Part shown: one piece after another, positions 17,528 through 62,057 of the stretch
Layout of the letters: each line of letters starts with the position of its first letter
How positions within the stretch are numbered: position 1 is the stretch's first letter
Assembly (NCBI GenBank): GCA_020059745.1
Contig: JAGVBK010000003.1
Coordinates: 68,492-132,491, forward strand
DNA from: Candidatus Shapirobacteria bacterium
Lineage (GTDB): Bacteria; Patescibacteriota; Microgenomatia; UM-FILTER-40-11
Length of the DNA: 64,000 nucleotides
Direction: 5' to 3'
Position numbers and translations under genes: made by a program
Notes under the pieces: generated by a model
The model's input: only the letters and a program-made list of their open reading frames with translations
Told to the model about the DNA's origin: nothing
Database searches by the model: none

Positions 17528-18773
17528 GATTAAGCTTTCTTTGTTTGGTGCTTTTTTGTTGAGAATCGCTTTTTTTCCTTGGGGGCGTCACAGTGACTGC
17601 GACAACTTTTTTTATTGGTCAAAATACCTTTGGGATAAAAAAGATTTTTTGGGGTTTTTAGGGAAGTCGGTTCCTAATGCTATGCCGGCAACCTACCCTC
17701 CGATTTACTATTACCTTATTTACCTTTGGCGCGGTTTTTACGAACTAATCGGCGAAATTTTATGGCGGCTTAATGTCAAGCTGTCATTTTTCCCTTCAAA
17801 CTTCATTTTCATTTATCAAAGCTATCAAGGAGGGGTAGCTTTTAATAAACTGCCTGCAATTTTTGCTGATTTTGGCTGTGCATTTCTGATTTTTAAAACC
17901 GCGGTTTTGGCAGGATGCAAGAGAGAAGCGGCGGCGGTTTCCTCTCTTCTTTTCCTCTTGCTGCCGCCTTTTTGGTATAACAGCGCCCACTGGGGGCAGA
18001 TAGACAGCATTTACGCCTTTTTTATCCTGCTGGCTTTTTATTTAACTTTCAAGAGTAAATTTTTGTTGGCAACTTTTTCATTAGGTTTGTCTGCCCTGGT
18101 AAAACCAACAGGTCTTTTTGTTTTACCGGCTTTTTTAATATATTTTTTAGGAAAAAGAAAAATTATGGATGGAATCTTTGGCGCTGCTTTTTTTGCTATT
18201 TTGGCTTATATTTTATATTTTCCCATCCAGCCTTTAAATACTCTTGCGTGGGCTTTCAGTTTTTATTTTGGCAGCTTTAAAGGCGAAGTAGATTTTCTTG
18301 CCTCAAATGCCTTTAATTTTTGGTCTTTTCTTTTTGGATTTGATCAAAGGCCGGCCGGATCGCTTTTCTTGGGAATCCCTTTATCCTTGTGGGGTTTTGC
18401 CGTTTTTACTTTTTTTGGCGGAGTGATTGCTTTTTATCAGTGGAAAAGAAATAACCGAAAAAGTTTTCTTTTTTCAGCCTTTCTTTTTAGTTTTGCCTCT
18501 TTTCTTTTTTTACCAAGGATGCATGAGCGTTATTTCTATACAGCGGCGGCAGTTTTGGCAATTCTCTCTGGGTTTAACAAAAAAATGCTTTATTTGTTTG
18601 TTGCTCTTTCTTTAATTCACTTTATTAACCTTTACCATTTTTGGTGGTCACCAAGAATTCCTTTGCTAATTTCGCTTTTTTCCAATCTGGCAGTTCTTCG
18701 GGTTCTTATCTTTCTTAAGATGGCAATTTTTGCTAAACTATTGCTAGCCCACGCGAAAAATGAAACTGCTTGA
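17514..18773 (+). CDS. GT-C-fold polytopic membrane protein, DUF2029 or PIG-V/Gpi18 mannosyltransferase-like.
   Basis: 419 aa with about 11 TM helices and a C-terminal MHERYFY motif. It is a paralog of the 22953 gene, which has MHERYLY. Confidence 0.45.
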   Translation: MSNFKIKLSLFGAFLLRIAFFPWGRHSDCDNFFYWSKYLWDKKDFLGFLGKSVPNAMPATYPPIYYYLIYLWRGFYELIGEILWRLNVKLSFFPSNFIFIYQSYQGGVAFNKLPAIFADFGCAFLIFKTAVLAGCKREAAAVSSLLFLLLPPFWYNSAHWGQIDSIYAFFILLAFYLTFKSKFLLATFSLGLSALVKPTGLFVLPAFLIYFLGKRKIMDGIFGAAFFAILAYILYFPIQPLNTLAWAFSFYFGSFKGEVDFLASNAFNFWSFLFGFDQRPAGSLFLGIPLSLWGFAVFTFFGGVIAFYQWKRNNRKSFLFSAFLFSFASFLFLPRMHERYFYTAAAVLAILSGFNKKMLYLFVALSLIHFINLYHFWWSPRIPLLISLFSNLAVLRVLIFLKMAIFAKLLLAHAKNETA

Positions 18774-20274
18774 AATTGCATACAAATATCTTTGGGTTGT
18801 TATCCTTGTTTCTTTCTTTTTTTTGTATTCTTACAAATTAACCGAAGTTCCTCCGGGAATTAACTTTGACGAAGCTTCCATCGGGTATAATGCCGCTTTA
18901 ATTTCAGATGATCTTCATGACGAAAACGGCCGTTTATTGCCGGTTTTTATTCTTACCCTTGACGGAAAAGATTGGAAACAGCCGAGCAATGTTTATTTTG
19001 CCGCTTTAATTTTTAAAATTTTGGGAAAGTCATATTTTAACCTGCGGCTTATCAGCGTTATTTATGCTGTTGTTTCCGGCTTTCTTTTTTATAAGCTTTT
19101 AAGACTTTTTGTTTCCCAGTTTTTAAGTCTAATTGGTTTGGTTTTGTATTTAACCGCTCCTTCGATGATGATTCAAAGCCATCTGGTATTGGAAAATATG
19201 GCCCTGCTTCCTTTTTTTATGGTCTGGCTTTATTTTCTTCTTTCCTATTCGCTTAAGCCAAAACCCTATAAAGCGCTTATTTCGGGGATTTTTTTGGGGA
19301 TTTCTTTTTATTCTTATAAGGGCATGCGGGCAATGGTGCCGGTTTATTTAGTTTTATCAGTTTTTTATTTTCTTTACCTTGATTTTTACCCCCTGCCGGA
19401 TTTAAAAAAAATTAAGGCTCTTTTAATTAAAGCCAAACCTTTGTTTTATTTCTTAATCGGAATTGGTCCTTTTCTTTTGCCTGTAAATTGGTTGAATTCC
19501 CGCTACGCCGGCGCTGTTTATGACCCGCGGGTTTTTATTCCAACTTCTCTTTATGAGTCAGCGCTTATCTATTTTGGCAATTTTGATTTTTCCTTTCTTT
19601 TTGCCAAAGGCGACAGCATGCTGACCCATTCCACCGGCAGGCACGGAATTTTTTTGGGTCCGACCTTTTTTCTTTTTTTTCTTGGGCTTTTTCAGCTGGC
19701 TAAAGAAAAAAAACACCAATACTACTTTGTTTTCCTTACTCTTATCTTAACCCCGGTTCTTTTGATGAGAGTTGGTTCAGTATACCGGGCCAGCCGCTTA
19801 ATGATGTATATTCCTCTGGCGACTTTTATTTTTACTTTGGGAGTAAAAAAAATATTGGAATACAAAACCGCAGTTTTAAAATATGCGCTTTTGTCGGCGG
19901 TGATACTTTCTGTTGGCTTTTTTTATTCTGACTTTTTAAAGCATTATTTTGGGCCTTACCCTAAAAGAATCAGCCAGGACTTTTCTCCAAATTTTAACGA
20001 GGCCTTTAAAAGCTTGGCAGAGCTTTCAAGGGAAACCGGCAAAACTCCTTATGTTGAGTACGACGACTACAACCGCCACTTTACCGACATGCAATTTTTT
20101 AGGGAAGTATTTTTTCCCAAAGAAGACCTTAAAATGTGGCCCAGGGATTTTGATCCTTTTCCTGAAAACGGCTTGGTGCTAACCTCAATCGGCGGAAGCG
20201 GAGAAATAATTAATTACAAAGAAATCCCGGCGCTTGAGTCTGGCCAGCGGACTTTTTTTATTGTCGGCAAATAA
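18760..20274 (+). CDS. ArnT/PMT-family GT-C glycosyltransferase (GT83/GT39-like). This is the divergent member preceding the tandem array.
   Basis: The first extracytoplasmic loop carries the DE motif, NFDEASIGYNA...DENG. There are about 11 TM helices and a soluble C-terminal domain. Confidence 0.7.
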   Translation: MKLLEIAYKYLWVVILVSFFFLYSYKLTEVPPGINFDEASIGYNAALISDDLHDENGRLLPVFILTLDGKDWKQPSNVYFAALIFKILGKSYFNLRLISVIYAVVSGFLFYKLLRLFVSQFLSLIGLVLYLTAPSMMIQSHLVLENMALLPFFMVWLYFLLSYSLKPKPYKALISGIFLGISFYSYKGMRAMVPVYLVLSVFYFLYLDFYPLPDLKKIKALLIKAKPLFYFLIGIGPFLLPVNWLNSRYAGAVYDPRVFIPTSLYESALIYFGNFDFSFLFAKGDSMLTHSTGRHGIFLGPTFFLFFLGLFQLAKEKKHQYYFVFLTLILTPVLLMRVGSVYRASRLMMYIPLATFIFTLGVKKILEYKTAVLKYALLSAVILSVGFFYSDFLKHYFGPYPKRISQDFSPNFNEAFKSLAELSRETGKTPYVEYDDYNRHFTDMQFFREVFFPKEDLKMWPRDFDPFPENGLVLTSIGGSGEIINYKEIPALESGQRTFFIVGK

Positions 20275-21181
20275 CATGAATCTTTCAATTATCATTGTCA
20301 GCTACAACACCAAGGAACTTTTGAGAAAGTGCCTTGAGTCGGTGATCAGGGATCAGTTATCGGGAATCAGTTATCAGGGATCGGTTGTCGGTAAAAACAA
20401 AAAACCGGTAACCGATAACCAATTACCGGTAACCGAAATCATTGTCGTTGACAATGCTTCAAAAGACGGAAGCGTAGAGTACTTAAGGGAGCTAGTAGAT
20501 AATTCACCGACCACCGACCACCGATCACCGATCACTCTCAGGCTGATAGAAAACAAAGAAAATTTTGGTTTTGCCAAAGCGGCAAATCAAGGTATAAGGA
20601 TAGCAAAAGGAGAAAATATTTTGCTTTTAAATTCAGACACAAAGCTTACTGAAAATTCGCTTAAGAGCCTTTTAGAGTTTGCGGAGAAAGTGCAGCCTGC
20701 TGTGATTGGAGCCCAAATGCTAAATCCCGACGGTTCAGTGCAGGGGTCTTGCTTTTTATTGCCAACCGTTAAAAGAGCGATTTTAGAATATTGGTTGGGG
20801 AAAAAAGATTATTTTTCAAAATACTATCCAAAGGGAGATAGGCCGGTTGAGGTTGAGGCGGTTTCCGGAGGAGCGATGCTAGTCTCAAAAGAGATTGTTA
20901 ATGAAGTGGGAATGCTGGACGAGCGGTATTTTATGTATTTTGAAGACCTTGATTTTTGCCGCCGAGCAAGAAAAGCAGGATATAAAATTTATTATCTTCC
21001 TTCCTCAAAGATCATTCACGAGCACGGAGCCAGCGGTAAAAAACTGGCAGAACCGAAAGATCAATGGCGAAGACTTGTTCCTTCAAGCAAGATTTATCAC
21101 GGCAGCTTAAACCATTTTTTAATCACTTTTATTATTTTAAGCGGGCAGAAAATTAGAAAGCTTTTTACAGGCAAAAAATGA
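20234..21181 (+). CDS. Family 2 glycosyltransferase carrying an in-frame heptamer-repeat insertion.
   Basis: Contains LSIIIVSYNTKEL...VVDNASKDGS...RLIENKENFGFAKAAN...LLNSDT. Relative to the 6348 paralog, an insertion of about 30 aa (DQLSGISYQGSVVGKNKKPVTDNQLPVTE) is encoded by a palindromic heptamer array. Confidence 0.8.
   Translation: MSLASGLFLLSANNMNLSIIIVSYNTKELLRKCLESVIRDQLSGISYQGSVVGKNKKPVTDNQLPVTEIIVVDNASKDGSVEYLRELVDNSPTTDHRSPITLRLIENKENFGFAKAANQGIRIAKGENILLLNSDTKLTENSLKSLLEFAEKVQPAVIGAQMLNPDGSVQGSCFLLPTVKRAILEYWLGKKDYFSKYYPKGDRPVEVEAVSGGAMLVSKEIVNEVGMLDERYFMYFEDLDFCRRARKAGYKIYYLPSSKIIHEHGASGKKLAEPKDQWRRLVPSSKIYHGSLNHFLITFIILSGQKIRKLFTGKK
20344..20434. repeat. Array of about 13 degenerate heptamers forming an imperfect palindrome, inside a GT2 CDS.
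   Basis: The units are GATCAGG GATCAGT TATCGGG AATCAGT TATCAGG GATCGGT TGTCGGT AAAAACA AAAAACC GGTAACC GATAACC AATTACC GGTAACC. Left-arm units contain GTTATCGG, and right-arm units contain its complement CCGATAAC. Confidence 0.65.
20505..20535. repeat. Heptamer tandem repeat CACCGA(C/T) with 4.4 units, inside a GT2 CDS.
   Basis: CACCGAC CACCGAC CACCGAT CACCGAT CAC. It is contiguous with the 38-nt tract shared with the 6348 gene. Confidence 0.65.
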
Positions 21182-22956
21182 AAAAAAAGCAAGTTTTTTT
21201 ATTGTTAATTATAATTATTATTGCTTCTGTCCTAAGGTTTTATAAATTAAACCAGTATCCGCCGGCGCTTTTTTCCGATGAGGTTGACTTGGGTTACCAA
21301 GCTTACAGCTTTTTAAAAACAGGAGCCGATTATTTTGGCAATAAATGGCCGGTTTCCTTTCGTTCGTTTGCCGACTTCAGAGCGCCTCTTTATCTTTATT
21401 CTGCAGCCGGAACGATTTCGATTTTTGGTTTAAACGAGTGGGGGGTGAGGCTGCCAGCAGCCATCTACGGGGTGCTTGGGGTAATTGCCTTTTTCTTTTT
21501 GGTTTTACAGATAAGCAAAAACTATAGTTTTTCTTTGCTCGCCTCTTTTATTTTGGCAATTTTGCCTTGGCACATTCATTACTCAAGGGCGGGATTTGAG
21601 GTTTCCGCTTTGTTTTTCTTGCTTTCTCTGGGGCTTTTTTCGTTTTTCAGGTTTTTGGAAAAAAAGAAACTTTTATTTTTGCTTTTTTCGCTTTTTGCTC
21701 TTAGCCTTTGCTTTTATACCTATGCCACTTCAAGGCTTTTTCTGCCTTTGCTTTGTTTTGCTGCCCTTCTAATTTACGGAAAAGAAATTTTTAGTTTTAA
21801 CTTAAAAAAATTATCAGTTTCTTTCTTTGTCTGTTTTATATTTCTTTCCCCTTTTATCAAAGATGCTTTTTGGGGGGAAGGTTTGCACCGTTTTTCTTAT
21901 TTGAATATTTTTTCTGACTCTAACTTGAAGTTTGAAATCGATAGGCAAAGGCTGGTTGACGCAGTTCACAACCGCGAGCAGGTGGTGGGAATGGCTACAC
22001 CTAAATTTGCTTATGTTTTCCACAATAAACCGCTTTCCTGGGCCACAACAATAGTGAGAAGCTTCATTTCCAGTTTTTCTTTTGATTTTCTTTTTCTTAA
22101 AGGCGATCCCAACCTAAGGCACGGAATTGGAAAAATGGGAGGAGTGCTGATTGTATTTTTGCCGTTTTTGCTTTTAGGGCTCTTTAAAGTTTTTGAAACA
22201 CTAAAAGCAGGGAAGGGTTCTTTATTATCAGCTAAAGAAAGCCTTTTCTTTTTATCCTTTCTTTTTTTAGCCCCTCTTCCTTCATCAATTACCTACGACG
22301 GCGGAACTCACGCCACCAGGCTCTTTTTTATGGTTTTGCCTTTGTCATTACTTGTTGCCTTAGGAATTTGGGAGTTTTTTACCTGGATAAAGAAAGCTAA
22401 AATAAGAAACGCACTAATAGTTTTTACTGGATTTCTTCTCTCAATTAATTTAGTTAACTACCTGCACTTTTACTATTATCATTACCCGCTTGAGTCAGAA
22501 CGCTTATGGCATTATGGATTTAAGGAAGGGATTACTAAGCTTAATAAGCTCTCAGAAAGCTATGACAAGGTTATTTTAAGCAGTTCATACGAACCGCCCA
22601 TGATTTTCTTTTTATTTTGGTCAAAGCATGAGCCTTCTTTGTTTAAGGCTAAAGACTACCAGTATTTTAGCAATGATTGGTTTGAAGGAAAGCAAATTGG
22701 AAAATATTATTTTGGCAAGCTAAAAAGCAGTTTTCTTGATCAGTATTTAACTTCCCAGTTAAAAGAGGAAAACTTGGAGAAAATTTTAATTTTGGCTGGG
22801 AGAAACGACTTTGGCAGTGACCTAAATCACAAGATCCCTTCGCTTTTAAGCGCTGTCGACAAGGTTAATCTTCCCTCAAAAGAGCCAATTCTTTTTTTAC
22901 TGAGAACAAAAACTTATGAAGAATTGGAAAAAGAAAGAGTAGAATTAGTTAAATGA
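21178..22956 (+). CDS. ArnT/PMT-family GT-C glycosyltransferase; array paralog 1.
   Basis: Conserved motifs are FSDEVDLGYQAYSFLKTGADYFGNKWP, FGLNEWGVRLPAA and LPWHIHYSR. It has a GT-C TM core plus a C-terminal domain of about 170 aa. Confidence 0.8.
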   Translation: MKKKQVFLLLIIIIIASVLRFYKLNQYPPALFSDEVDLGYQAYSFLKTGADYFGNKWPVSFRSFADFRAPLYLYSAAGTISIFGLNEWGVRLPAAIYGVLGVIAFFFLVLQISKNYSFSLLASFILAILPWHIHYSRAGFEVSALFFLLSLGLFSFFRFLEKKKLLFLLFSLFALSLCFYTYATSRLFLPLLCFAALLIYGKEIFSFNLKKLSVSFFVCFIFLSPFIKDAFWGEGLHRFSYLNIFSDSNLKFEIDRQRLVDAVHNREQVVGMATPKFAYVFHNKPLSWATTIVRSFISSFSFDFLFLKGDPNLRHGIGKMGGVLIVFLPFLLLGLFKVFETLKAGKGSLLSAKESLFFLSFLFLAPLPSSITYDGGTHATRLFFMVLPLSLLVALGIWEFFTWIKKAKIRNALIVFTGFLLSINLVNYLHFYYYHYPLESERLWHYGFKEGITKLNKLSESYDKVILSSSYEPPMIFFLFWSKHEPSLFKAKDYQYFSNDWFEGKQIGKYYFGKLKSSFLDQYLTSQLKEENLEKILILAGRNDFGSDLNHKIPSLLSAVDKVNLPSKEPILFLLRTKTYEELEKERVELVK

Positions 22957-24215
22957 AAAAGATTATATTATTTGCTTTGATTGTCAGGCTGATTTTTATC
23001 TTTGGCCATTATCACCCTGATTTGGGCAATCATCTTGATTGGGGGAACAGGCTTTGGGAATATGGTGCAAAAAATTTCTATGGAAGTAGCGTGTGGACGG
23101 TTTCCTGGCCTAACCAGCCACCGGGAACAATGTACCTTTGGGGATTATTAAGTAAGGTTAATCAGGGAATCTTTAATGTTTTTTGGTATGTAAACTTAAA
23201 TATTCCTGCCTTTCCATCTTTCATTATCCCTTTTTTGGAAAAAAGTTTACATCCGGCTTTAGTAAAATTGCCTTCAGTTCTGGCTGAACTTGGCATTGGC
23301 TGGCTTATTTATCAGTTTCTTTTACACTTTGGTTTGAAAAAAAAGAAAGCCTTGTCTGGAGCTGCTCTTTTTTTATTTAACCCGGTAATAGTTTACAATT
23401 CCGCAGTTTGGGGGCAGACCGATGGGGTGGTAAACTTTTTTGCACTATTTGCATTCTTTTTAACCCTGAAAAAGAAATATTTATGGGGAATTTTGGCTTT
23501 TATGTTTTCAATATATGTAAAACTGTCTTTGATAATCTTTTTACCTCTGTTTTTGTTGCTTCTCTGGAGGGAAAAAGTCCCGGTTGCAAAAATTATTTTG
23601 AATTTTACCTTATCTTTTTTATTTATTGTCTTGATCAGCCTGCCTTTCACTCATGGCAACCCTGTTCTTTGGTTAAAGGGCCTTTATCAGGCCCGGATTA
23701 TTGGAGGCCAGGGGAATATGCTTACTGCCAATGCCTTTAATCTTTGGGCAATTATTTTTGGAATTGATCTTTCCAGACCCGATGTAGGTACTTTTTTAAA
23801 TTTGAGTTATAAAATTTGGGGAATAATCCTTTTTTCGCTTGGCTTTGTGGCTACTATTTTCAAATTTGAAAAAAATAAATTTAATAATCAAAGCTTTTTC
23901 TTTAGTCTCGCCCTGGTTTCCTTTTTTTCTTTTATGTTTTTAACTAACATGCATGAAAGATACCTATATCCTGCTTTTCCTTATCTTGCTCTGCTTACTG
24001 CCTGGGGTTTTTTGCCCTTGGCGATTTACATAACTATCTCGGTTATTCATTTATTAAATCTTTACAATCTTTGGTTTTATCCAGACATTGGTTTTGGGGT
24101 AAGCTTTTTAAATTGGCTGCCAAGTGTTAAAATTCTTTCGTTAATTCTTCTTTTAATGAACTTTTATATTATCTACCGATTTTATTCATTGAATCAGTCA
24201 AAAAAAGGGGAGTAA
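22953..24215 (+). CDS. GT-C-fold polytopic membrane protein (DUF2029/PIG-V-like); paralog of the 17514 gene.
   Basis: 420 aa and multi-TM with a C-terminal MHERYLY motif. It is interleaved within the ArnT-like array. Confidence 0.45.
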   Translation: MKKIILFALIVRLIFIFGHYHPDLGNHLDWGNRLWEYGAKNFYGSSVWTVSWPNQPPGTMYLWGLLSKVNQGIFNVFWYVNLNIPAFPSFIIPFLEKSLHPALVKLPSVLAELGIGWLIYQFLLHFGLKKKKALSGAALFLFNPVIVYNSAVWGQTDGVVNFFALFAFFLTLKKKYLWGILAFMFSIYVKLSLIIFLPLFLLLLWREKVPVAKIILNFTLSFLFIVLISLPFTHGNPVLWLKGLYQARIIGGQGNMLTANAFNLWAIIFGIDLSRPDVGTFLNLSYKIWGIILFSLGFVATIFKFEKNKFNNQSFFFSLALVSFFSFMFLTNMHERYLYPAFPYLALLTAWGFLPLAIYITISVIHLLNLYNLWFYPDIGFGVSFLNWLPSVKILSLILLLMNFYIIYRFYSLNQSKKGE

Positions 24216-25873: not shown

Positions 25874-26511
25874 TGACAAAAAAAGTTACCGCTATTTTTC
25901 TTGCTTTGGTTTTTATCTCTCCTTGGTTTTGGCTGTTTGTCCGGAGCCCGGGAGCCTTAATTCCCCGAAAAGAGGATCTGTATCAAAGAAATACTCATGA
26001 GTTTATTAGTGAAGTTAACTCCTTTCAAAGCGAAAGCAGGAAACAAAACATAGGGTTATGGGGAAAAATTATTGTGAACAAGGCAACATTCTTGTTTAAG
26101 GATGCAATTACCCGTTATAGCGAGTCTTTTGACTTTCATTTTCTTTTTATTGAAGGTGATTTGGATGTTAAAAAAACCACCAGGGCTTCAGGCCCTCTTT
26201 ACCTTTCATTCTTGCCCTTCATTGCTTACGGTTTTGCTCTTTGCTTTAAAAAAAAGGATTATTGGCCGATTTTTTTTGTTTTTATTTCACCGGCTTTGGC
26301 TGCTTTTTTTAATCAACACTATGAAACCCTGTCCAGAATACCCTTTATTCTTAGCTTGACTGCACTTGCCGCCATGGGAATAAATGCCTTTTCAAAGCTT
26401 AAAGGCTACTTTTTTTTGAAATCAGTTTTTATTTTTTTTCTCATTTTTGAATTTTTAAGGTTTGTTCATTATTACTTTATGCACCACCCGTATCTTTTGC
26501 TAAAAAGATGA
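25873..26511 (+). pseudogene. Internal fragment of an ArnT/PMT-family paralog. Both the N-terminal catalytic loop and the C-terminal domain are missing.
   Basis: The 212-aa ORF aligns only to the central TM region of the neighbouring paralogs: FDFHFLFIEGDLD in the fragment versus FSPQFLFISGDPNPRH and FSPKFLFIEGPKDDRQR in full-length copies. It lacks the DE loop, the SPWH box and the W.YGYKE C-terminal domain. Confidence 0.55.
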
Positions 26512-28169: not shown

Positions 28170-28192
28170 TTTTATAATGGTATAAGAAAAAA

Positions 28193-29854
28193 GTGAAGAA
28201 AATTATTTTAAGCTTAATTTTTATTTTAGCTCTTGGTTTAAGGGTTTACAGGGTTTCCGACTTTCCTGCTGGTCCTAATCTGGACGAGATTTCCCAGGGA
28301 TATACTGCCTATTCAATCCTAAAAACCGGCAGAGACGAATGGGGGGAATTTTTGCCCTTTTCACCCCGGGCTTTTGGAGATTACAGGGCCCCACTTTACA
28401 CTTACCTTATAATTCCCTCAATTGCCGTTTTTAACTTAAACGAGTTTGCCCTTCGCTTTCCGGCTGCGGTTTTGGGCAGCTTGGCAGTTTTAGTGCTTTA
28501 TTTTCTGGTAAAAGAGCTTTTTGGAGATGAAAAAATTTCACTTGCCGCTTCTTTATTATTGGCAATAAGCCCTTGGCATTTACCCCTTTCCAGGGGAGCT
28601 TTTGAGGCTTCTCTTCATGTTTTCCTTTTTCCTTTAGGAATGTTTCTTTTTTTAAAAGGCCTAAAAAAACATTTTTGGCTTTTCCCCTCGGCCGTTATTT
28701 TTGGCCTAAACCTATTTAGCTATTATGCGCCAAGGCTATTTACGCCTTTAGCGGTTTTGTTACTGGTTTATTTTTTTAGGAAAGAATTTTTTAAGAAAAA
28801 AGCAAACTTGGGTTTTATCTTTGTTTTTGGAACACTGTCTTTATTTGCCTTCTTTGCACTTTTAGTTGGCGGAACCAGGGTCTCTGACACCAGTCTTTTA
28901 AGCCCGACCGACAAATGGCAGTGGGTGGCAAACAGACAGTACGAGGCAGCTTGGAATGGTCTTTCTCCACTGGTAGAAAAAGCTTTTAATAATAAGGTTT
29001 CTTTTCTTTCAACTGTTTTTTATAAACAATATTTAGATTATTTTTCTCTAAGCTTTCTTTTTAGCCGCGGGCCGGCTGAAGCTACTTACGGCATGATTCC
29101 CGGACGCGGGGTTCTTTATCTTTTTGAACTGCCTTTGGTTTTTTATGGCATTTACCTTCTTATCAAAAGTAAGGAAAAAAAACAGGGTGTTTTGGTTTTA
29201 GCTTTGCTTTTAATTTCTCCTCTTTCAGCTGCTTTGGCAAAAGGAGAAAGAGCGGCAAATAGGGCTGTTACCATGCTGCCTCTTTGGCAGATAGTCTCAG
29301 CCGCAGGGGCCTTAGGGGTTTTGCAGTACTTTCAAAAATATGTTTCAAAAAAACTTTTGATATTTTTATTTGTTGCTTTTTCTTTTGTCTCTCTTGCCTT
29401 TTTCCTTGAAGACTATTTTTATCACGCTCCGGTGGTAAATGCTCCCAGTATGTCTTATGGCTGGAAGGAGGCGAGCGGCTATCTTTTAAAAGAAAGCAAA
29501 AACTATGACAAAATAATTGTCAGCAGAAAACTTTCGGAACCCCAGATTGCGGTTGCCTATTTTTTGAAAATGGAGCCTAAGACAGTGCAGCAATATTCAC
29601 CGGAATGGCTGGAATATGAGCAAAAAGGCCTTCTTTTTGTGGATCAATTGCAAAAATACAATCTTGACAAGTTTGAATTTAGAGATTTTCATTTTCCGGA
29701 AGACCAGAAATTGCCAAACACCCTTTTTGTTGGTAAACTTGAAGACTTTGCCGGGGTAAAAGGTGAAATTAAAAAGAAGGTTTATTATCCGGGGCCTGAC
29801 CAAAGGATTGCTTTAATAATTATGAGTTTTGAAAATGAAGAAGGCAGTAATTAA
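28193..29854 (+). CDS. ArnT/PMT-family GT-C glycosyltransferase; array paralog 4.
   Basis: Starts with GTG in the ORF track. Contains NLDEISQGYTAYSILKTGRDEWGEFLP, FNLNEFALRFPAA and SPWHLPLSR. The C-terminal domain has MSYGWKE. Confidence 0.8.
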   Translation: MKKIILSLIFILALGLRVYRVSDFPAGPNLDEISQGYTAYSILKTGRDEWGEFLPFSPRAFGDYRAPLYTYLIIPSIAVFNLNEFALRFPAAVLGSLAVLVLYFLVKELFGDEKISLAASLLLAISPWHLPLSRGAFEASLHVFLFPLGMFLFLKGLKKHFWLFPSAVIFGLNLFSYYAPRLFTPLAVLLLVYFFRKEFFKKKANLGFIFVFGTLSLFAFFALLVGGTRVSDTSLLSPTDKWQWVANRQYEAAWNGLSPLVEKAFNNKVSFLSTVFYKQYLDYFSLSFLFSRGPAEATYGMIPGRGVLYLFELPLVFYGIYLLIKSKEKKQGVLVLALLLISPLSAALAKGERAANRAVTMLPLWQIVSAAGALGVLQYFQKYVSKKLLIFLFVAFSFVSLAFFLEDYFYHAPVVNAPSMSYGWKEASGYLLKESKNYDKIIVSRKLSEPQIAVAYFLKMEPKTVQQYSPEWLEYEQKGLLFVDQLQKYNLDKFEFRDFHFPEDQKLPNTLFVGKLEDFAGVKGEIKKKVYYPGPDQRIALIIMSFENEEGSN

Positions 29855-31475
29855 ACAAATAGGGTTAGTTTTATTGGTAGCTTTTTCTCTTTTTCTCAGG
29901 CTCTATAAAATATCAAGCTTGCCGCCTTCTCTTAATTGGGACGAGGTTTCTCACGGATTTAATGCTTTTTCAGTTTTAGAAACCGGAAAAGATGAATGGG
30001 GCCAAAGTTTTCCCTTAATTTTTCGAGCCTATGGCGACTATAAGCTTCCTTTATATATATATTTAACCTCTCTTTCAATAAAATTCTTCGGCTTAAACAT
30101 TTTTTCGGTTCGGCTTGTTTCCGCTTTGGCGGGAACAGGATTGGTGCTGGTTTCATATCTGATTGCTTTAAAGATTACAAAAAGCAAAAGCCTTTCCTTT
30201 TTTGCCGCTTTTTTAACAGCCGTTTCTCCTTGGAGTCTTTTTGTTTCAAGGGCCGGTCTTGAGGCAAACCTTGCCGCTTTTTTGTTTGCTTTGGGGGTTT
30301 ACTTTTTAATCAATTTTTTAGATAAAAGTGATTACAAAAAACTTTCTTATACCGCGTTTTTCTGGGGGCTTTCAGTTTATGCTTATAATTCTGCCAGGGT
30401 TTTAGTGCCTTTATTTGTGCTTTTTTGCCTGCTTCTTTTTATAAAGACCAAAGTAAGTTTTAGACATATTAAGTTGGGATTGATTGTTTTGTCTATTTTT
30501 TCCCTGCCGGTATTCGGTCAAATTTTTAATAAAACCGGGCAGGCCAGATTTAATCTTGTGGCCATTAACGACGAGGGCGCGGTGGCAAAAATTATTGAAC
30601 AAAGGCAAAACTCTAAGCTTGGTCCTTTTGTGACAAGGCTAATCTATAACCGGCCGGTAAATTTTTTACATACTGCTTTTAAAAATTACATTAGCAATCT
30701 TTCTCCTAGGTATCTCTTTTTAAGAGGGGGGAGCCATTACCAGTTTTCCATGCCCGACCATGAGCTTCTTTATCTGGTAATTTCTCCCTTTCTTCTCTTT
30801 GGCTTAGGCAGGTGTCTTTTCTCTAAAGAGGCAAAAGTTAAGCTGCTTTTTTTCTGGTTTTTAGCTGCTTTTATTCCCTCGGCAATAACCAAAGACGCAC
30901 CTCATGTTTTAAGAAGTATTTTGATTTTGCCGGCGCCAATGATAATAAGCGCATATGGGGTGGGAGGGATAACAGAAAGAATAAAAGGGAGGTCTTTGTT
31001 TAAAGGCCAGCTTCTTCTTTGGGTTTTAATTTTTGCTGTTTTAGTAAGTTTTGTCCACTGGTGGCAGGACTATTTTAATATTTATCCTAAAGCTTATTCT
31101 TGGGCTTGGCAATATGGTTACAAAGAGGCGGTTTTGTTTATGAAAGAAAACTACCAAAACTATGACAAAATTTTTGTAACCAAAAGGCATGGAGAGCCTC
31201 ACGAGTTTGTATTGTTTTATTTTGGCTGGAACCCACAGGATTATCAGAATGATCCTTTAAAAAAGTGGGATTACCATGCCGGTTGGTATTGGGTTGACGG
31301 TTTTGATAAATTTGTTTTTCTTAACGACTGGGAAGTTTCCGTTAAGGCAGCTTGCCCCAAAGCAGAAAAATGCCTGCTTGTTACCAGCCCCGGGAATCAT
31401 TCAAACGGTTGGTCAAAACAAAGTGAAGTAAAATTTTTGGACGGAAAAACAGCTTTTGAAATATTAGAAAAATGA
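29829..31475 (+). CDS. ArnT/PMT-family GT-C glycosyltransferase; array paralog 5.
   Basis: Contains NWDEVSHGFNAFSVLETGKDEWGQSFP and SPWSLFVSR. The C-terminal domain has WQYGYKE. It overlaps the upstream gene by 26 nt. Confidence 0.8.
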   Translation: MKMKKAVIKQIGLVLLVAFSLFLRLYKISSLPPSLNWDEVSHGFNAFSVLETGKDEWGQSFPLIFRAYGDYKLPLYIYLTSLSIKFFGLNIFSVRLVSALAGTGLVLVSYLIALKITKSKSLSFFAAFLTAVSPWSLFVSRAGLEANLAAFLFALGVYFLINFLDKSDYKKLSYTAFFWGLSVYAYNSARVLVPLFVLFCLLLFIKTKVSFRHIKLGLIVLSIFSLPVFGQIFNKTGQARFNLVAINDEGAVAKIIEQRQNSKLGPFVTRLIYNRPVNFLHTAFKNYISNLSPRYLFLRGGSHYQFSMPDHELLYLVISPFLLFGLGRCLFSKEAKVKLLFFWFLAAFIPSAITKDAPHVLRSILILPAPMIISAYGVGGITERIKGRSLFKGQLLLWVLIFAVLVSFVHWWQDYFNIYPKAYSWAWQYGYKEAVLFMKENYQNYDKIFVTKRHGEPHEFVLFYFGWNPQDYQNDPLKKWDYHAGWYWVDGFDKFVFLNDWEVSVKAACPKAEKCLLVTSPGNHSNGWSKQSEVKFLDGKTAFEILEK

Positions 31476-33124
31476 AGTTGATAAAAAAATATTTATTTGT
31501 GGCAGTATTTTTGCTTGCCTTGTTTCTGAGGCTTTATAAACTGGGGGAGTTCCCAGTAGGTTTTTTGTGGGATGAGGCTGCTTTGGGTTATAATGCCTAC
31601 TCAATCTTAAAAACCGGCCGCGACGAATATGGGAAAGCCCTGCCCTTAATTTTTAAATCTTTTGGTGATCATAAGCCTGGTTTTTATATTTATTTGACAG
31701 TTCCCTCAGTGGCGGTTTTTGGTCTTAATGAGTTTGCCGTCAGGTTTCCTTCGGCGATTTTTGGCAGTTTGTCTGTTTTGTTTATTTACCTTCTTTTAAA
31801 AGAAAGAAACTTAAGAGTTGCTCTTTTTGCCTCGGCTGCCCTGGCTGTTTCGCCTTGGCATTTTTCTTTTTCCCGCGGCGCTTGGGAACTTAATGTGATG
31901 ACTTTTGAAATTCTCGGAGGCCTATATTTTTTAACCAAGTATTTAACTTTAAAAAAGGTTTTTCATTTGTACCTTTCTGCGCTTTTTTGGGTTATTACGC
32001 TTTTTACCTATCAGTCAGCCAAAGCCTTGGTTCCGGCGCTTTTATTTGGTTTTGTTTTCTTTTTTCGCAGAGAGCTTAAAGGAATTTCCCTTAAGCCAAA
32101 ATTCGTGTTTGCTGCTCTTTTTTTAGCTTCTTTTTTATTTTTTAACTTTCTCACGGCTACCGGTGGACGCTCAGGCAGAATTAAAGTGATGAGCGTTTTT
32201 TCTTACCCCCGTTCGCAGGAGGAAACCCAGGCGATTTTAGAACAAGATGAGGGAGACCGGGTAAGTTGGAAACTCTTTCATAATTCTTTGGTGTTTTTTA
32301 GCCGCGGTGTCTTGGGGCGATACTTAAACCACTTTTCAGGGAATTTCCTATTTTTTTCAGGGGATTGGTCTAATCCCAGAAATGGGGTTGTTTACCACGG
32401 CGTTTTATATCTTCCTGACCTGATTTTTGTAATTGCAGGGCTAGGGATACTTTTCAGCCGTAAAAGAGCACCTTCAGAAAACTTAATGCTTTACTGGTTG
32501 CTCCTGGCACCGCTTCCTTCTGCCGTAACCCGGGATATTATTTCCTCAGTCAGGTCTTTTACCATGGTTATTCCTTTTGTTTTCCTTATTGCCACGGGAA
32601 TGGACGGAATTCTCAATTTGCTTTCTAAAAAAAGATTTAAGATTGCAGGAGCAGTTACTTTTCTTTTAATTTACACTGTATTTTTTGTTCGTTTTCTGGA
32701 TCTTTATTTTATTCACGATCCAGAAATTAATGCCCAAGACCGCCTTTACGGGTACAAAGAAATGGTGGAATACATAAACCCGAGGGTACATACAAAAAAC
32801 AAAGTGGTGGTTACTTCAAAATACGGCCAACCCTACATTTTTTATCTTTTTTACACGAAATACGACCCGTCTTTATATCAAAAACAAGCCAGCCTTAAGG
32901 AAAGCGAAGTGGGTGATGTCGGCGAGGTTGAGAGAATTGACAACATTGAGTTTCGTAAAGTTTATTGGCCGGACGACCGGGGAAAAGAAAATTCGCTTTT
33001 TGTTGACGACGAATTTGGTTTGCCTATGCATGACCTTTTAGGGGAGGAAGAAAAGCATGTTATTCTTAAAGAAATAAAATACCCAAACCAAAAAGTAGCT
33101 TTTAGAATAGTGGAAACAAAATAA
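31472..33124 (+). CDS. ArnT/PMT-family GT-C glycosyltransferase; array paralog 6.
   Basis: Contains LWDEAALGYNAYSILKTGRDEYGKALP, FGLNEFAVRFPSA and SPWHFSFSR. The C-terminal domain has LYGYKE. Confidence 0.8.
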   Translation: MKLIKKYLFVAVFLLALFLRLYKLGEFPVGFLWDEAALGYNAYSILKTGRDEYGKALPLIFKSFGDHKPGFYIYLTVPSVAVFGLNEFAVRFPSAIFGSLSVLFIYLLLKERNLRVALFASAALAVSPWHFSFSRGAWELNVMTFEILGGLYFLTKYLTLKKVFHLYLSALFWVITLFTYQSAKALVPALLFGFVFFFRRELKGISLKPKFVFAALFLASFLFFNFLTATGGRSGRIKVMSVFSYPRSQEETQAILEQDEGDRVSWKLFHNSLVFFSRGVLGRYLNHFSGNFLFFSGDWSNPRNGVVYHGVLYLPDLIFVIAGLGILFSRKRAPSENLMLYWLLLAPLPSAVTRDIISSVRSFTMVIPFVFLIATGMDGILNLLSKKRFKIAGAVTFLLIYTVFFVRFLDLYFIHDPEINAQDRLYGYKEMVEYINPRVHTKNKVVVTSKYGQPYIFYLFYTKYDPSLYQKQASLKESEVGDVGEVERIDNIEFRKVYWPDDRGKENSLFVDDEFGLPMHDLLGEEEKHVILKEIKYPNQKVAFRIVETK

Positions 33125-34758
33125 TGATAAAAACAAAATCAGGAAAGATTATTCTTGTTTTGATATTTTTTTTAACTCTATTTTTAAGAACTTTCAAACT
33201 CAATGAGTTTCCGACTGGTCTTAATGCAGACGAGGCTGCTATTGGTTACAATGCCTACAGTTTAATTCAAACAGGCAAAGATGAGTTTGGCCATGCCTGG
33301 CCTGTTAATTTTCAGTCTTTTAATGACTTTAAGCCTGGTTTGTATTTTTATTTGGTTTTGCCGTTTGTAAAAGCTTTAGGACTTAATGAGTGGGCGGTTA
33401 GGCTTCCCTCAGCTTTGATGGGAACTTTAACAGTTGTTGTTTTGTATTTCTTGCTGAAAGAATTTTTTTCCAAAGAAGCAGCCTTGGTTTCAGCGCTGCT
33501 TTTATCTTTGAGCCCCTGGCATCTTCATTTTTCCCGGGGCGGTTGGGAAACAAACGCCGCTACTTTTTTCATTGTTTTGGGAATTTGGCTTTTTGTCAAA
33601 GCTTTTAAAAAGCCCGGTTTCTTTGTTCTTAGTGTTCTTTGTTTTGGACTTTCAATGCTTGCCTACCACAGTGCCAGAGTAGTGGCGCCGCTTTTGGGAT
33701 TGGGCCTGGTTTTTATGAATTTTTCCCAGGTTTTTGCAAAGAAAAACTTTAAATGGCTTTTGGCGAGTTTCTTTGTCGGCATTGTTTTTTTAATCCTTTT
33801 GGCCTCTTCTTTTCTAGGCGAAGCAGGAGCTTCGAGGTTTTCAGGAGTCGGCATTTTTGCCGACCAAGGGCCGCTCTGGCGGGTGAATGAGCTTAGAGGA
33901 CAGCACCCTGATCCTTTTTCCACTTTTTCAAAGTTAGCACACAACAAGTTTGTGGAATATTCTTTTCGCTTTGTTGACAATTGGCTGCGCCACTTTAGCG
34001 GTAATTTTCTATTTATTTCCGGTGACGAAATCCAAAGAAACAGAGTTCCGGAAATGGGCCAGTTTCTTTTAATTGAACTGCCGTTTTTAGTTTTTGGCTT
34101 TTACTTTTTATTAAGAAACAAACCAAAATTTTGGCTGTTTTTTCTTGGGTGGGTTGCCGTTGCTCCCATTGCTTCGGCTTTAACATTTCAGTCTCCCCAT
34201 GCCATAAGAGCCTTGAATATGGTAATACCATTGATTGTTTTAGCCGGGTACGGAATAACTCAATCATTTTTATGGTTGAAAAGTAAAACAAAACTGTATG
34301 GGGCATTAAGTATTATGTATTTGGTATTTTTTGTCTGGAATTTTAGTTTTTATTTACATCAGTACTATGTCCATTATCATAAAACCTATCCGGCAGCCTG
34401 GGAGGATGGCTTTAGAGAACTGGCTGGATATGTTTCTGGTAGAAAGGATGACTTTGAAAGAATTTATATCACCAACAAATATGACCAGCCTTATATTTTG
34501 ATGGCCTTTTATTTAAAATACCCGCCGGAAAAATTCCAAGAGCAAGCAGTGCTGACACCAAGGGACCAATTTGGCTTTTCTACCGTTGACCGCTTTGATA
34601 AGTTTTACTTTGGCCCAATCGATTATGAAAGCCTAAGCGGGCAAGAAAACATTATGATTATCGGTTCTTCCGGAGAGATACCCGATTCTGCTACAATAGC
34701 CAAGAGAATTTACTTTAGAGACGGAAAGACAGAGGCGTTTAGGATAGTTGAATATTGA
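33124..34758 (+). CDS. ArnT/PMT-family GT-C glycosyltransferase; array paralog 7.
   Basis: Contains NADEAAIGYNAYSLIQTGKDEFGHAWP, LGLNEWAVRLPSA and SPWHLHFSR. The C-terminal domain has WEDGFRE. Confidence 0.8.
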   Translation: MIKTKSGKIILVLIFFLTLFLRTFKLNEFPTGLNADEAAIGYNAYSLIQTGKDEFGHAWPVNFQSFNDFKPGLYFYLVLPFVKALGLNEWAVRLPSALMGTLTVVVLYFLLKEFFSKEAALVSALLLSLSPWHLHFSRGGWETNAATFFIVLGIWLFVKAFKKPGFFVLSVLCFGLSMLAYHSARVVAPLLGLGLVFMNFSQVFAKKNFKWLLASFFVGIVFLILLASSFLGEAGASRFSGVGIFADQGPLWRVNELRGQHPDPFSTFSKLAHNKFVEYSFRFVDNWLRHFSGNFLFISGDEIQRNRVPEMGQFLLIELPFLVFGFYFLLRNKPKFWLFFLGWVAVAPIASALTFQSPHAIRALNMVIPLIVLAGYGITQSFLWLKSKTKLYGALSIMYLVFFVWNFSFYLHQYYVHYHKTYPAAWEDGFRELAGYVSGRKDDFERIYITNKYDQPYILMAFYLKYPPEKFQEQAVLTPRDQFGFSTVDRFDKFYFGPIDYESLSGQENIMIIGSSGEIPDSATIAKRIYFRDGKTEAFRIVEY

Positions 34759-61996: not shown

Positions 61997-62057
61997 ATTT
62001 ATCTATTAATTTGTTTTGTTAGTTTCTGTTATTAGATTAGTACTGAAAGGAAGCAAA

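Follow-up and report, generated by a model that had tools for sequence, protein, structure and literature searches.

Why would a bacterium of a candidate phylum with a tiny genome (Microgenomates) carry a row of eight genes for different membrane glycosyltransferases? The array lies in a 64-kb stretch of DNA (the window), and we found no description of it in the literature. The original prediction had listed eight full-length open reading frames of 504-592 aa and one fragment, and all of these are present exactly as claimed. It had also named a GT-C gene at 22953 as the sole interruption; instead, a GT2 gene (20234/20276-21181) also lies between the first two copies. The array reads as follows:

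18760..20274, + strand: copy A, a divergent PMT_2 GT-C glycosyltransferase, 504 aa (PMT_2 E 2.5e-11)
20234..21181, + strand: soluble GT2 glycosyltransferase between copies A and B (Glycos_transf_2 E 5e-23; no TM segments predicted), probably starting at the ATG at 20276
21178..22956, + strand: copy B, PMT_2 GT-C, 592 aa (PMT_2 and PMT above threshold)
22953..24215, + strand: ALG3/GT87-like GT-C inside the array, 420 aa (Pfam ALG3 27 bits, cut-off 23.6)
24215..25873, + strand: copy C, PMT_2 GT-C, 552 aa (PMT_2 E 2.2e-15)
25873..26511, + strand: half-size family member, 212 aa (positions 215-419 of 559 in the family HMM, E 3e-23)
26508..28169, + strand: copy E, PMT_2 GT-C, 553 aa (PMT_2 and PMT above threshold)
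28193..29854, + strand: copy F, PMT_2 GT-C, 553 aa, GTG start (PMT_2 above gathering threshold)
29829..31475, + strand: copy G, PMT_2 GT-C, 548 aa, TTG start with an ATG at 29835; G-H-I core
31472..33124, + strand: copy H, PMT_2 GT-C, 550 aa; G-H-I core
33124..34758, + strand: copy I, PMT_2 GT-C and last gene of the array, 544 aa (PMT_2 E 6.7e-17, with PMT and STT3 matches)

At most junctions, the stop codon of one gene overlaps the start codon of the next, an operon-like packing that suggests co-expression of the copies. The 212-aa half-size member consists of the EL4 loop and the C-terminal TM bundle, without the catalytic loop or the soluble domain.

All eight copies pass the Pfam gathering threshold for PMT_2 (E 1.6e-9 to 6.7e-17), and six of them also score above threshold for Pfam PMT. 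The predicted membership in the ArnT/PMT family holds for the GT-C fold, for PMT_2, and at the clan level, but not for the NCBIfam equivalog models, which give only 19.7 bits for ArnT (cut-off 567) and 20.8 bits for Pmt (cut-off 800). Likewise, comparison with the structures of ArnT and Pmt bears out the fold but reveals no preference: the AF2 model of copy I (pLDDT 93.7) has a GT-C(A) fold, and the array protein is equidistant from ALG12, AglB, ArnT, Pmt4, and STT3B. ArnT is the only solved structure matched by a sequence profile below E=0.001 (E 9e-4), over residues 69-226 only.

As predicted, the DE..GY.AYS..TG.DE.G..P loop is found in every copy, in variant form in copy A, and the FGLNEW.VRLPSA-type and SPWH...SR boxes are confined to the other seven. 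Across 63 sequences that include the eight copies, the D36-E37 pair that opens the first juxtamembrane loop helix is invariant, as are D53, R93, and R362, and the residues of the catalytic loop are intact in every one of the eight. An essential Asp occupies the equivalent place in all GT-C(A) enzymes (PMC12041299).

Copies B-I had been described as closely related. Their pairwise amino-acid identity is only 26-37%, and each shares 21-25% with copy A, which is indeed divergent. DNA similarity among the copies is limited to short patches (19-347 nt) of 65-85% identity, with two exact matches of 19 and 26 nt; this excludes collapsed recent duplicates, and the view that these are diversified paralogs stands. 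Conservation had been assigned to the TM core and divergence to a C-terminal domain of 150-170 aa. Instead, this domain is ~120-160 aa long and only modestly more divergent than the TM part (14-44% versus 26-39% identity among copies), and conservation within ortholog groups is ~0.6 in every region, the C-terminal domain included. What all groups have in common lies mainly in the first external loop and not in the TM core: 25% of columns in the catalytic loop are conserved across the groups, compared to 2-9% elsewhere.

Using copy I as the query to find all related loci, we examined the arrays of relatives within 10-kb flanks. Positional orthologs occur in the same order in Shapirobacteria, Woesebacteria, and other Microgenomates at 38-75% identity, and a neighbour-joining tree resolves separate ortholog clades for I (45 loci), H (33), G (33), F (16), B (14), and C (9). 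For every copy, the orthologs are more similar than any paralog. Identities are 48-76% for the ortholog group of copy A, found on the same contigs as the E and I orthologs, 38-47% for the positional orthologs of copy C, and 58-63% for copy G in close relatives; for copy E they are 43-75%, followed by a sharp drop to the paralog level of 39%. Copies A and E occur only in nearer relatives, and the 10-kb flanks of more distant species contain no copy E orthologs. The C-F-G-H-I order recurs and is common among relatives, with G-H-I as its stable core; G is present in 22 and H in 21 of the 24 species examined. The arrays of relatives hold between one and six full-length copies within the 10 kb examined, in nested patterns (I; G-I; G-H-I; C-F-G-H-I) drawn from these flanks only, so that copies elsewhere in the genomes are not visible. 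These results show that each copy is its own old ortholog group and that the array is no oddity of one genome but a long-established cluster, conserved in position across Microgenomates, from a family of 7,313 clusters at 50% identity (E<=1e-30).

Ten loci, and L051 as well, have an ortholog of the ALG3-like gene at 22953 (42-50% identity) in the corresponding position. The GT2 at 20234..21181 is conserved as an upstream partner: in several loci (e.g. L013, L019, L027, and L030), orthologs with 40-66% identity immediately precede the ALG3-like gene. Arrays of relatives are flanked by the same GT2/GT4 genes and the B12 radical-SAM gene, which directly follows gt2c in most of them. The whole window is a glycan island: besides 15 GT-C genes supported by Pfam, it encodes flippases of the Wzx type and candidate polyprenyl-phosphate-sugar synthases, ArnC-like and DPMS-like, a content that supports the polyprenyl-phosphate-sugar-dependent context first proposed. 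The partner genes are:

3485..5778, + strand: GT-C/GT-A pair apart from the array, consisting of a PMT_2 gene (3485-4903) and, directly after it, an ArnC/GtrB-like synthase (4900-5778)
35175..36008, + strand: gt2a, conserved downstream GT2 (homologs in 48 loci, median 51% identity)
36005..37030, + strand: gt4a, conserved downstream GT4 (homologs in 45 loci)
37027..38172, + strand: PIG-V-like GT-C (Mannosyl_trans2 E 6e-11), present in close relatives L051-L053
38173..39441, + strand: Wzx-type (Polysacc_synt) flippase, also in L051-L053
39432..40223, + strand: DPMS/GtrB/PpgS-like GT2 without TM segments (homologs in 39 loci, median 52% identity)
40220..41248, + strand: gt2c, conserved GT2 with two C-terminal TM helices (homologs in 38 loci, median 51% identity)
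55661..57145, + strand: B12-binding radical SAM enzyme of the conserved core cluster (homologs in 32 loci, median 51% identity)
57615..58640, + strand: GT2 of the conserved core cluster (homologs in 25 loci, median 50% identity)

The PMT_2 gene at 3485-4903 (E 1.2e-13) is a ninth PMT_2 gene, outside the array. The synthase that follows it, with predicted C-terminal TM helices, matches the ArnC equivalog model (E 1.3e-54), the solved ArnC over its full length (E 9e-46), and GtrB (E 1e-28). The GT2 at 39432..40223 matches DPMS (E 1.1e-16) and GtrB (E 2.1e-11) in the PDB as well as NCBIfam PpgS and PgfS, which marks it as the conserved core's candidate for donor synthesis. Two points count against the proposal made below: for at least 15 GT-Cs we identified just two or three candidates for lipid-phosphate-sugar synthesis, and the 64 kb yielded neither a priming phosphoglycosyltransferase nor an LCP ligase or GtrA-type flippase.

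From the fold and the catalytic loop, the partner genes, the operon-like packing, and the higher identity of positional orthologs in other species (38-75%) than of paralogs (26-37%), we propose, with a probability of roughly 0.6, that the eight genes encode non-redundant GT-C(A) enzymes, each with its own linkage or acceptor specificity, that transfer one sugar apiece from polyprenyl-phosphate-sugars to a growing cell-surface glycan at the outer face of the cytoplasmic membrane. The array's most likely role is to build or decorate a complex sugar coat outside the membrane. The cytoplasmic GT2 and GT4 enzymes of the island would assemble a lipid-linked precursor, while the GT2 synthases at 39432 (DPMS-like) and 4900 (ArnC-like) would load polyprenyl phosphate with single sugars; Wzx-type flippases would carry both lipid types across the membrane, where the array enzymes would extend and decorate the glycan jointly with the ALG3-like GT-C in their midst and the island's remaining GT-Cs. 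The closest models are the many mycobacterial GT-C arabinosyl- and mannosyltransferases, with a single lipid donor in common, and the PMT_2 enzymes by which wall polymers of Gram-positive bacteria are decorated. With C55-P-sugars as donors, PMT_2 GT-Cs glycosylate wall polymers, LTA and WTA among them (PMC8035078), and seven mycobacterial GT-Cs have separate roles with DPA as their common donor (PMC12041299). The observations of the original prediction are confirmed and its interpretation is partly supported.

As the acceptor, we somewhat favour a glycopolymer of the envelope or a lipid-linked glycan over a protein; the fold of the C-terminal domain was uninformative on this point. A protein acceptor, which we consider unlikely, is nevertheless a serious alternative because the family resembles PMTs in its DE motif and in the Arg that aligns with Pmt1 R138, and a GT39 enzyme of a Firmicute (556 aa) glycosylates proteins (PMC6151902). 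The paralogs would then be PMT/GT39-type O-glycosyltransferases that modify different secreted or surface proteins (S-layer protein, pilins, adhesins) or add successive sugars to protein-linked glycans. Consistent with this are the PMT matches in six of eight copies; a sub-threshold HMMER alignment that places D36-E37 on Pmt1 D77-E78 and R93 on Pmt1 R138; the fact that the monoderm C. bescii needs a similar-sized GT39 enzyme for protein glycosylation (PMC6151902); the neighbour gt2a, whose best solved relatives are the protein/peptide glycosyltransferases GmaR and SunS; and the periodic surface layer and pili of imaged CPR cells (PMC7906910). But the array copies score far below the Pmt equivalog cut-off and have no MIR domain by Pfam search, their structure is no nearer to PMT than to ALG12, AglB, or ArnT, and the conserved core of relatives' loci contains no candidate target protein gene. 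The rest of the island, moreover, is rich in polysaccharide-type machinery (YfhO, GT87, AftD-like, Wzx), and we know of no precedent for five to eight distinct protein O-transferases within a single operon.

That the array is a reservoir of alternative enzymes, with only a subset in use and fast gain and loss of copies, varying the surface glycan for phage evasion or host attachment, strikes us as improbable. Its size and composition do differ between species: within the 10 kb covered, some have only I and others up to six full-length copies; A and E are confined to nearer relatives; and short or internally deleted family ORFs, several weakly resembling the 212-aa fragment, also lie inside other species' arrays. 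However, G, H, and I are kept in nearly all species examined, each copy resembles its orthologs more than any paralog, all eight catalytic loops are intact, and the codon overlaps suggest co-expression. The array also lacks the long homopolymer or simple-repeat tracts typical of phase variation; its only runs are 8-nt A/T runs in AT-rich sequence. As for an assembly artefact or decaying pseudogenes, a reading that the one fragment might invite, we give it almost no credence: the eight ORFs are uninterrupted, nucleotide similarity between copies is short, identical proteins occur on independent contigs of up to 196 kb, and the same array was recovered from dozens of independent assemblies.

How does this proposed array of non-redundant glycan-building enzymes compare with known systems? 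ArnT (GT83), the lipid A aminoarabinose transferase, is of similar length and has a C-terminal periplasmic domain, and the island has an ArnC-like synthase that adjoins the separate PMT_2 gene at 3485; in contrast, the array proteins fall far short of the ArnT equivalog cut-off and match its sequence over part of their length. Lipid A is an unlikely acceptor because no outer membrane is seen in the CPR cells imaged to date. The GT39 protein O-mannosyltransferases (yeast Pmt1/Pmt2/Pmt4, actinobacterial Pmt, C. bescii Cbes_1864) resemble the array in the Pfam PMT matches, the DE motif of the first external loop, and the aligned Arg, but differ in the MIR domain, which the array lacks, in the actinobacterial Pmt equivalog, and in the array's extra C-terminal alpha/beta domain. 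In the ER lumen, ALG3, ALG9, and ALG12, then the oligosaccharyltransferase STT3, act as a GT-C series on a lipid-linked glycan with Dol-P-sugar donors. The array may be likened to them through its embedded ALG3-like gene and the Pfam STT3 match of copy I, although it has no WWDYG motif, Pfam detects no OST-type C-terminal domain, and sequential action is something we only infer.

The closest analogies are two other systems. In the Gram-positive multi-component (three-component) transmembrane glycosylation systems, with the PMT_2-type GT-Cs GacL, GtlB, CsdD/CsdF, GtsC, and YkcB (PMC8035078), we see the same monoderm cell type (judged by cryo-TEM of other CPR cells), a similar-sized PMT_2-domain GT-C predicted to transfer outside the membrane, and a GT-A polyprenyl-phosphate-sugar synthase and Wzx-type flippase encoded nearby. 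But these systems pair one GT-A with one GT-C, in at most about three pairs scattered per genome (PMC8035078), whereas the array has five to eight distinct GT-Cs in one operon-like row and fewer candidate synthases, and a GtrA-type flippase was not found in the island's 64 kb. The mycobacterial enzymes belong to other GT-C families, and the Emb and Aft proteins are larger and have carbohydrate-binding domains. To our knowledge, their longest tandem run is three genes (embCAB). Like the array, the mycobacterial set (the EmbC-EmbA-EmbB operon, AftA-D, PimE, and the Mpt enzymes; PMC12041299) comprises many GT-C paralogs, partly in tandem, with their own roles, and AftD-like and GT87-like genes are also found in the window; the mycobacterial enzymes act outside the membrane on one polymer with a single polyprenyl-phosphate-sugar donor (PMC12041299).

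The eight PMT_2 GT-C genes of the array, copies A, B, C, E, F, G, H and I, appear in the ORF list at exactly the coordinates of the original prediction, and each has a PMT_2 match. With the genes that lie among them, they are arranged as follows.

18760-20274, + strand, copy A, 504 aa
20234-21181, soluble GT2 between A and B, start probably ATG at 20276
21178-22956, + strand, copy B, 592 aa
22953, ALG3-like GT-C (Pfam)
24215-25873, + strand, copy C, 552 aa
25873-26511, 212-aa ORF without the catalytic loop, family-HMM positions 215-419 (EL4 loop and C-terminal TM bundle)
26508-28169, + strand, copy E, 553 aa
28193-29854, + strand, copy F, 553 aa
29829-31475, + strand, copy G, 548 aa
31472-33124, + strand, copy H, 550 aa
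33124-34758, + strand, copy I, 544 aa

The row had been described as broken only by the gene at 22953. An ALG3-like gene does lie there, but the soluble GT2 between A and B breaks the array as well; the full tally of interruptions is two genes and the 212-aa fragment. Because most gene borders within and past the array are overlapping junctions (ATGA, TAATG or TGATG), the layout suggests that the array and the genes that follow it form one operon. A promoter and terminator scan of 16.5-36 kb gave counts no different from those in shuffled sequence. Copy I and its GT2 partner are separated by a gene of the 23S rRNA intervening-sequence protein family (34797-35171, E 3e-30) and are otherwise adjacent; homologs of this gene were not found in any related locus. 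On the minus strand at 20404-20430, within the GT2 gene at 20234-21181, a stem-loop of 12 bp with a T-run behind it overlaps a low-complexity insert (…KKPVTDNQLPVTE…) of the GT2 protein.

Seven of the copies were thought to be close paralogs. They are not; these seven share only 26-37% amino-acid identity, and copy A is 21-25% identical to them. DNA likeness between copies is confined to patches of 33-347 nt at 65-85% identity, with two exact matches of 19 and 26 nt. Recent duplication and assembly collapse are ruled out by this low protein identity and by the shortness of the DNA patches.

The main new result is that the array is old and shared across species. Using copy I as the query and one genome per species, we found 49 loci in Shapirobacteria, Woesebacteria, further Patescibacteria and several MAGs submitted as 'uncultured Gammaproteobacteria'. 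With an HMM made from the eight copies, 2-7 same-strand family ORFs were detected in almost every locus with 10 kb of upstream sequence. Best-match analysis shows that the order C-F-G-H-I recurs, with B sometimes present; the best match typically has about twice the score of the second-best paralog, at 38-47% identity, higher than the 26-37% between paralogs in the window. In a neighbour-joining tree of 160 full-length members, these genes form exclusive ortholog clades, represented in 45 (I), 33 (H), 33 (G), 16 (F), 14 (B) and 9 (C) loci. E and A are missing from those flanks; in nearer relatives each forms a separate ortholog group, sharing contigs with I orthologs: E orthologs are 43-75% identical before a sharp drop to 39%, the paralog level, and A orthologs are 48-76% identical. 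Nearer relatives with I orthologs at 64-67% identity have G-H-I or G-I in common with the window at 58-67%, and their downstream genes are those of the window. Among the 24 species with a full 10-kb upstream flank, five have CFGHI; the others have BGHI, GHI, GI, I alone or variants with up to six full-length copies. The family is a large one, with 7,313 clusters at E<=1e-30 when 1.84 billion cluster representatives were scanned in full with HMMER. Because ortholog clades and recurrent patterns hold across species, the array is, as judged by sequence comparison, a birth-and-death family with a stable G-H-I core and not a recent amplification.

The related loci L005, L008, L009, L012, L014 and some 15 more are in MAGs recorded as 'uncultured Gammaproteobacteria bacterium' that carry a Microgenomates-type array and neighbours; the taxonomic labels of these records are probably wrong. 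Like the 212-aa ORF of the window, short or internally deleted family ORFs also lie within the arrays of other species, at the following loci.

L047, 6154-6777
L014, 6154-6777
L033, 6115-6720
L002, 854-1384
L004, 9350-10255
L044, 5824-6705
L052, 9434-9973

Those of L002, L004 and L044 match overlapping stretches of the family HMM; the ORFs of about 205 aa in L047, L014 and L033 match the window fragment weakly (24-27% identity, E 1e-4 to 0.17). These short ORFs may have arisen by repeated decay, or they may represent a true accessory mini-protein.

What kind of enzymes are these? Assignment to the 'ArnT/PMT family' stands at the level of broad Pfam models and fails at the level of equivalogs. 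All eight copies match PMT_2 (PF13231; 38.6-62.6 bits, E 1.6e-9 to 6.7e-17) above its gathering threshold of 26.1 bits, and six of the eight (B, C, E, F, G and I) match PMT (PF02366) at 24-30 bits, with A and H below the cut-off of 22.7. The STT3 N-terminal Pfam model matches copy I alone. The NCBIfam ArnT, Pmt and archaeal STT3 equivalogs score about 20 bits against cut-offs of 450-800; the sole match to the ArnT equivalog PRK13279 is copy H at 19.7 bits (cut-off 567), and the best to the actinobacterial Pmt equivalog NF058602 is copy G at 20.8 bits (cut-off 800). None of the curated NCBIfam subfamilies, such as Agl23 or the LA_3751 family, applies, their matches being far sub-threshold. A sequence-profile search links them to just two solved structures, ArnT (E 9e-4, residues 69-226) and STT3 (E 0.003). 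Pfam reports neither an OST-type C-terminal domain nor, in loop 5, the MIR domain of eukaryotic PMTs. The 'W.YGY' motif directly after the last TM helix, x-W-x-Y-G-[YF] in the family, had raised the idea of a divergent oligosaccharyltransferase, which we rejected: across groups only YG[YFH] is kept and the WWD part is not, and an OST C-terminal domain is lacking in the Pfam results. Database labels for the proteins are only 'glycosyltransferase family 39', 'ArnT family' or 'phospholipid carrier-dependent glycosyltransferase'. The array proteins can be assigned to class GT-C(A) and to Pfam PMT_2; in the strict sense, membership of ArnT/GT83, PMT/GT39 or OST/GT66 is not demonstrable.

An AlphaFold2 model of copy I, built from 63 sequences, has a mean pLDDT of 93.7 and a pTM of 0.93. 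It displays the multi-pass membrane fold, N-terminal TM module and juxtamembrane helices of the first external loop that mark GT-C(A), and Foldseek returned the same set of GT-C structures (ALG12, AglB, ArnT, Pmt4 and STT3B) at probability 1.0. Because of the model and these matches, the predicted fold is certain to be GT-C(A), in line with the GT-C assignment of the original prediction, with no clear favorite among the characterised subfamilies.

The first-loop motif DE..GY.AYS..TG.DE.G..P is found in all eight copies, in variant form in A, and the FGLNEW.VRLPSA-type and SPWH...SR boxes are confined to the other seven; both points agree with the first account of the sequence. Twelve positions are invariant in the I orthologs and all eight copies: D36, E37, D53, P60, Y76, R93, Y181, L296, F297, G300, R362 and G377. 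The invariance of D36-E37 extends over 63 sequences, including all eight copies, and in the copy I model this pair begins helix 35-50 of the first loop. In all GT-C(A) enzymes, the first juxtamembrane helix carries an essential Asp at its tip (PMC12041299). In a sub-threshold HMMER alignment (E 0.68), D36-E37 falls on D77-E78 of Pmt1 and R93 on R138. Since D36-E37 is invariant in the copies and located at the place of the essential Asp, the predicted catalytic loop is retained in all eight. Homology and a Lys-rich N-terminus before TM1 would put this loop on the extracytoplasmic side.

How do the copies differ from each other? Their C-terminal domains had been described as 150-170 aa long and strongly diverged; in the copy I model the domain is 123 aa, and it is only somewhat more diverged, with 14-44% identity among copies versus 26-39% in the TM part. 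Synonymous sites are too saturated for dN/dS, because the proteins are about 30% identical between paralogs and at most 76% identical between nearest orthologs; constraint was gauged by the conservation of ortholog groups and catalytic residues. Comparing six ortholog groups column by column, we found that 25% of columns in the first loop are conserved in all six, compared to 4-6% in TM blocks, 9% in the long EL4 loop and 2% in the C-terminal domain. Conservation within groups stays near 0.6 throughout (0.60 for the C-terminal domain), and therefore every group is constrained over its full length. Only three columns passed a strict search for specificity-determining positions, too few to be informative. 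These data do not single out the C-terminal domain; they fit groups with little in common past the putative catalytic loop and with distinct, retained specificities.

From its gene content, the entire window is predicted to be a glycan-assembly island, with 15 GT-C genes above Pfam thresholds, including the eight array copies. Its other features are listed here; 'core' marks genes shared across species.

7-915 (partial) and 38173, Wzx-type flippases
3485, further PMT_2 GT-C, 472 aa (Pfam)
10395 and 12784 (span 10395-15207), tandem pair of YfhO GT-Cs, 799 and 807 aa (Pfam)
17514, GT87 (Pfam)
35175, core GT2 after the array, homologs in 48 loci, median 51% identity
36005, core GT4, homologs in 45 loci
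37027, PIG-V-like GT-C (Pfam)
39432, core GT2, DPMS-like, homologs in 39 loci, 52%
40220, core GT2, homologs in 38 loci, 51%
44239-45237 and 50370-51494, two SPASM radical-SAM enzymes
46303-47811, 55661-57145 and 62016-63572, three B12-binding radical-SAM enzymes; that at 55661 is core, homologs in 32 loci, 51%
52694-55360, AftD-like GT-C, 888 aa, E 9e-20
57615, core GT2, homologs in 25 loci
59816-61335, FdtA/WxcM-like sugar isomerase, then DegT-type aminotransferase (E 3e-136)

YfhO proteins glycosylate teichoic acids in Firmicutes, and the AftD family has a role in mycobacterial arabinan synthesis; the AftD-like gene has no homolog past search thresholds in related loci. Two more GT-Cs are borderline, at 9083 and in the N-terminal domain of a TPR protein at 41245. 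The latter (41245-43104, minus strand, 619 aa) joins a multi-TM N-terminal domain, weakly PMT_2-like (hhalign probability 66%, E 6e-5), to C-terminal TPR repeats, an architecture likened to the GT-C plus TPR arrangement of TMTC-type proteins; it is kept at 49-54% identity in near relatives and is the sole large annotated minus-strand gene. The island also holds about 12 GT2 and four GT4 genes, five methyltransferases and an epimerase. Radical-SAM enzymes inside it suggest unusual sugar modification such as C-methylation, and the isomerase-DegT pair suggests synthesis of a 3-amino-3,6-dideoxyhexose nucleotide sugar. The gene at 912-2594 encodes a protein of 560 aa that has about 11 hydrophobic segments and no Pfam match; kept (34-51% identity) at the cluster head in L004, L041 and L052, this protein might be a membrane protein of polymerase- or ligase-like type. 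As a hidden member of the array family it was rejected (hhalign probability 0.8%).

Across species, the core cluster begins with the GT2 (20234) and the ALG3-like GT-C (22953), followed by the array and the core genes listed. The PIG-V-like GT-C, a Wzx flippase and the TPR protein are inserted in the window and near relatives, and about 14 kb of additional insertion is found in the window alone. The closest solved structures to the GT2 at 39432 are Dol-P-Man synthase (E 1.1e-16) and GtrB (E 2.1e-11), and there are further hits to the PpgS and PgfS models. For the GT2 at 4900, the match is to ArnC and spans the whole protein (E 1.3e-54 and 9e-46), which carries TM helices at its C-terminus. It is plausible that both make polyprenyl-phosphate-sugar donors. 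The ArnC/GtrB-like 4900 gene directly follows the PMT_2 gene at 3485, a classic GT-C/GT-A pair (3485-5778) apart from the array. Of the small ORFs that we tested in the window, none was of GtrA type; nor did we see an LCP ligase or genes for a teichoic-acid backbone there.

We propose that the array enzymes are non-redundant, linkage-specific transferases that would act outside the membrane to lengthen or decorate a surface glycan, a reading to which we give a probability of roughly 60%. We favor it because the catalytic loops are intact, because synthases, flippases and cytoplasmic GTs lie alongside, and because there are precedents in Gram-positive bacteria and mycobacteria: Gram-positive PMT_2-type GT-Cs transfer single sugars from C55-P-sugars onto LTA, WTA and other wall polymers (PMC8035078), and in mycobacteria one lipid donor is common to seven GT-Cs, each with its own role in arabinan assembly (PMC12041299). 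It builds on the observed fold, catalytic-loop conservation, paralog age and synteny. We infer the donor class, membrane side, stepwise action and acceptor; for the acceptor, we lean toward a glycopolymer or lipid-linked glycan.

A protein acceptor is the serious alternative, to which we would give about one chance in four. Array copies match Pfam PMT and have PMT-like DE and Arg motifs, though the Pmt1 alignment is non-significant (E 0.68); protein glycosylation in C. bescii needs a 556-aa GT39 enzyme (PMC6151902), and CPR cells bear a periodic surface layer and pili (PMC7906910). It is improbable that the array is instead a reservoir of alternative enzymes for surface variation: its size varies and truncated copies occur, but orthologs are conserved, catalytic residues are intact and no phase-variation repeats were found. 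An artefact or pseudogene array is excluded by the ORF, nucleotide-similarity and related-locus data. One more speculative reading, which we consider unlikely, is that G-H-I, the other copies and the ALG3-like enzyme form a hetero-oligomeric assembly line (compare Pmt1-Pmt2 and EmbA-EmbB) for stepwise oligosaccharide synthesis on the outer face, a bacterial counterpart of the ER-lumenal ALG pathway that might end on a host-attachment surface protein.

With genomes of about 1 Mb, bacteria of the candidate phyla radiation, Microgenomates among them, live attached to other cells. Here more than 64 kb is given to glycan assembly, including 15 Pfam-supported GT-C enzymes, and at the core of the island, distinct GT-C paralogs form an old row whose positions are conserved in Shapirobacteria, Woesebacteria and relatives; this points to a complex surface glycan built outside the membrane as a conserved trait of a large uncultured lineage. 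Searching the literature for CPR, Patescibacteria or Microgenomates with GT-C, ArnT, GT39 or mannosyltransferase, we found no account of the array. The enzymology is expected; the array's scale, age and conservation in an uncultured symbiotic lineage are what is notable. The G-H-I triad, the DPMS-like synthase and the invariant D36-E37 offer biochemical targets, and the array is a natural series of diverged GT-Cs in which to study how acceptor and linkage specificity evolve.

Like the multi-component transmembrane glycosylation system of Gram-positive bacteria, the window has GT-A synthases, Wzx flippases and GT-Cs together; the acceptor in that system is a wall polymer, LTA, WTA or SCWP (PMC8035078). 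The acceptor of ArnT is lipid A in an outer membrane; in cryo-TEM, other CPR cells lack such a membrane (PMC7906910). What sets the array apart from these systems is that a single conserved, operon-like row contains five to eight distinct GT-Cs, in a lineage whose genomes are very small.
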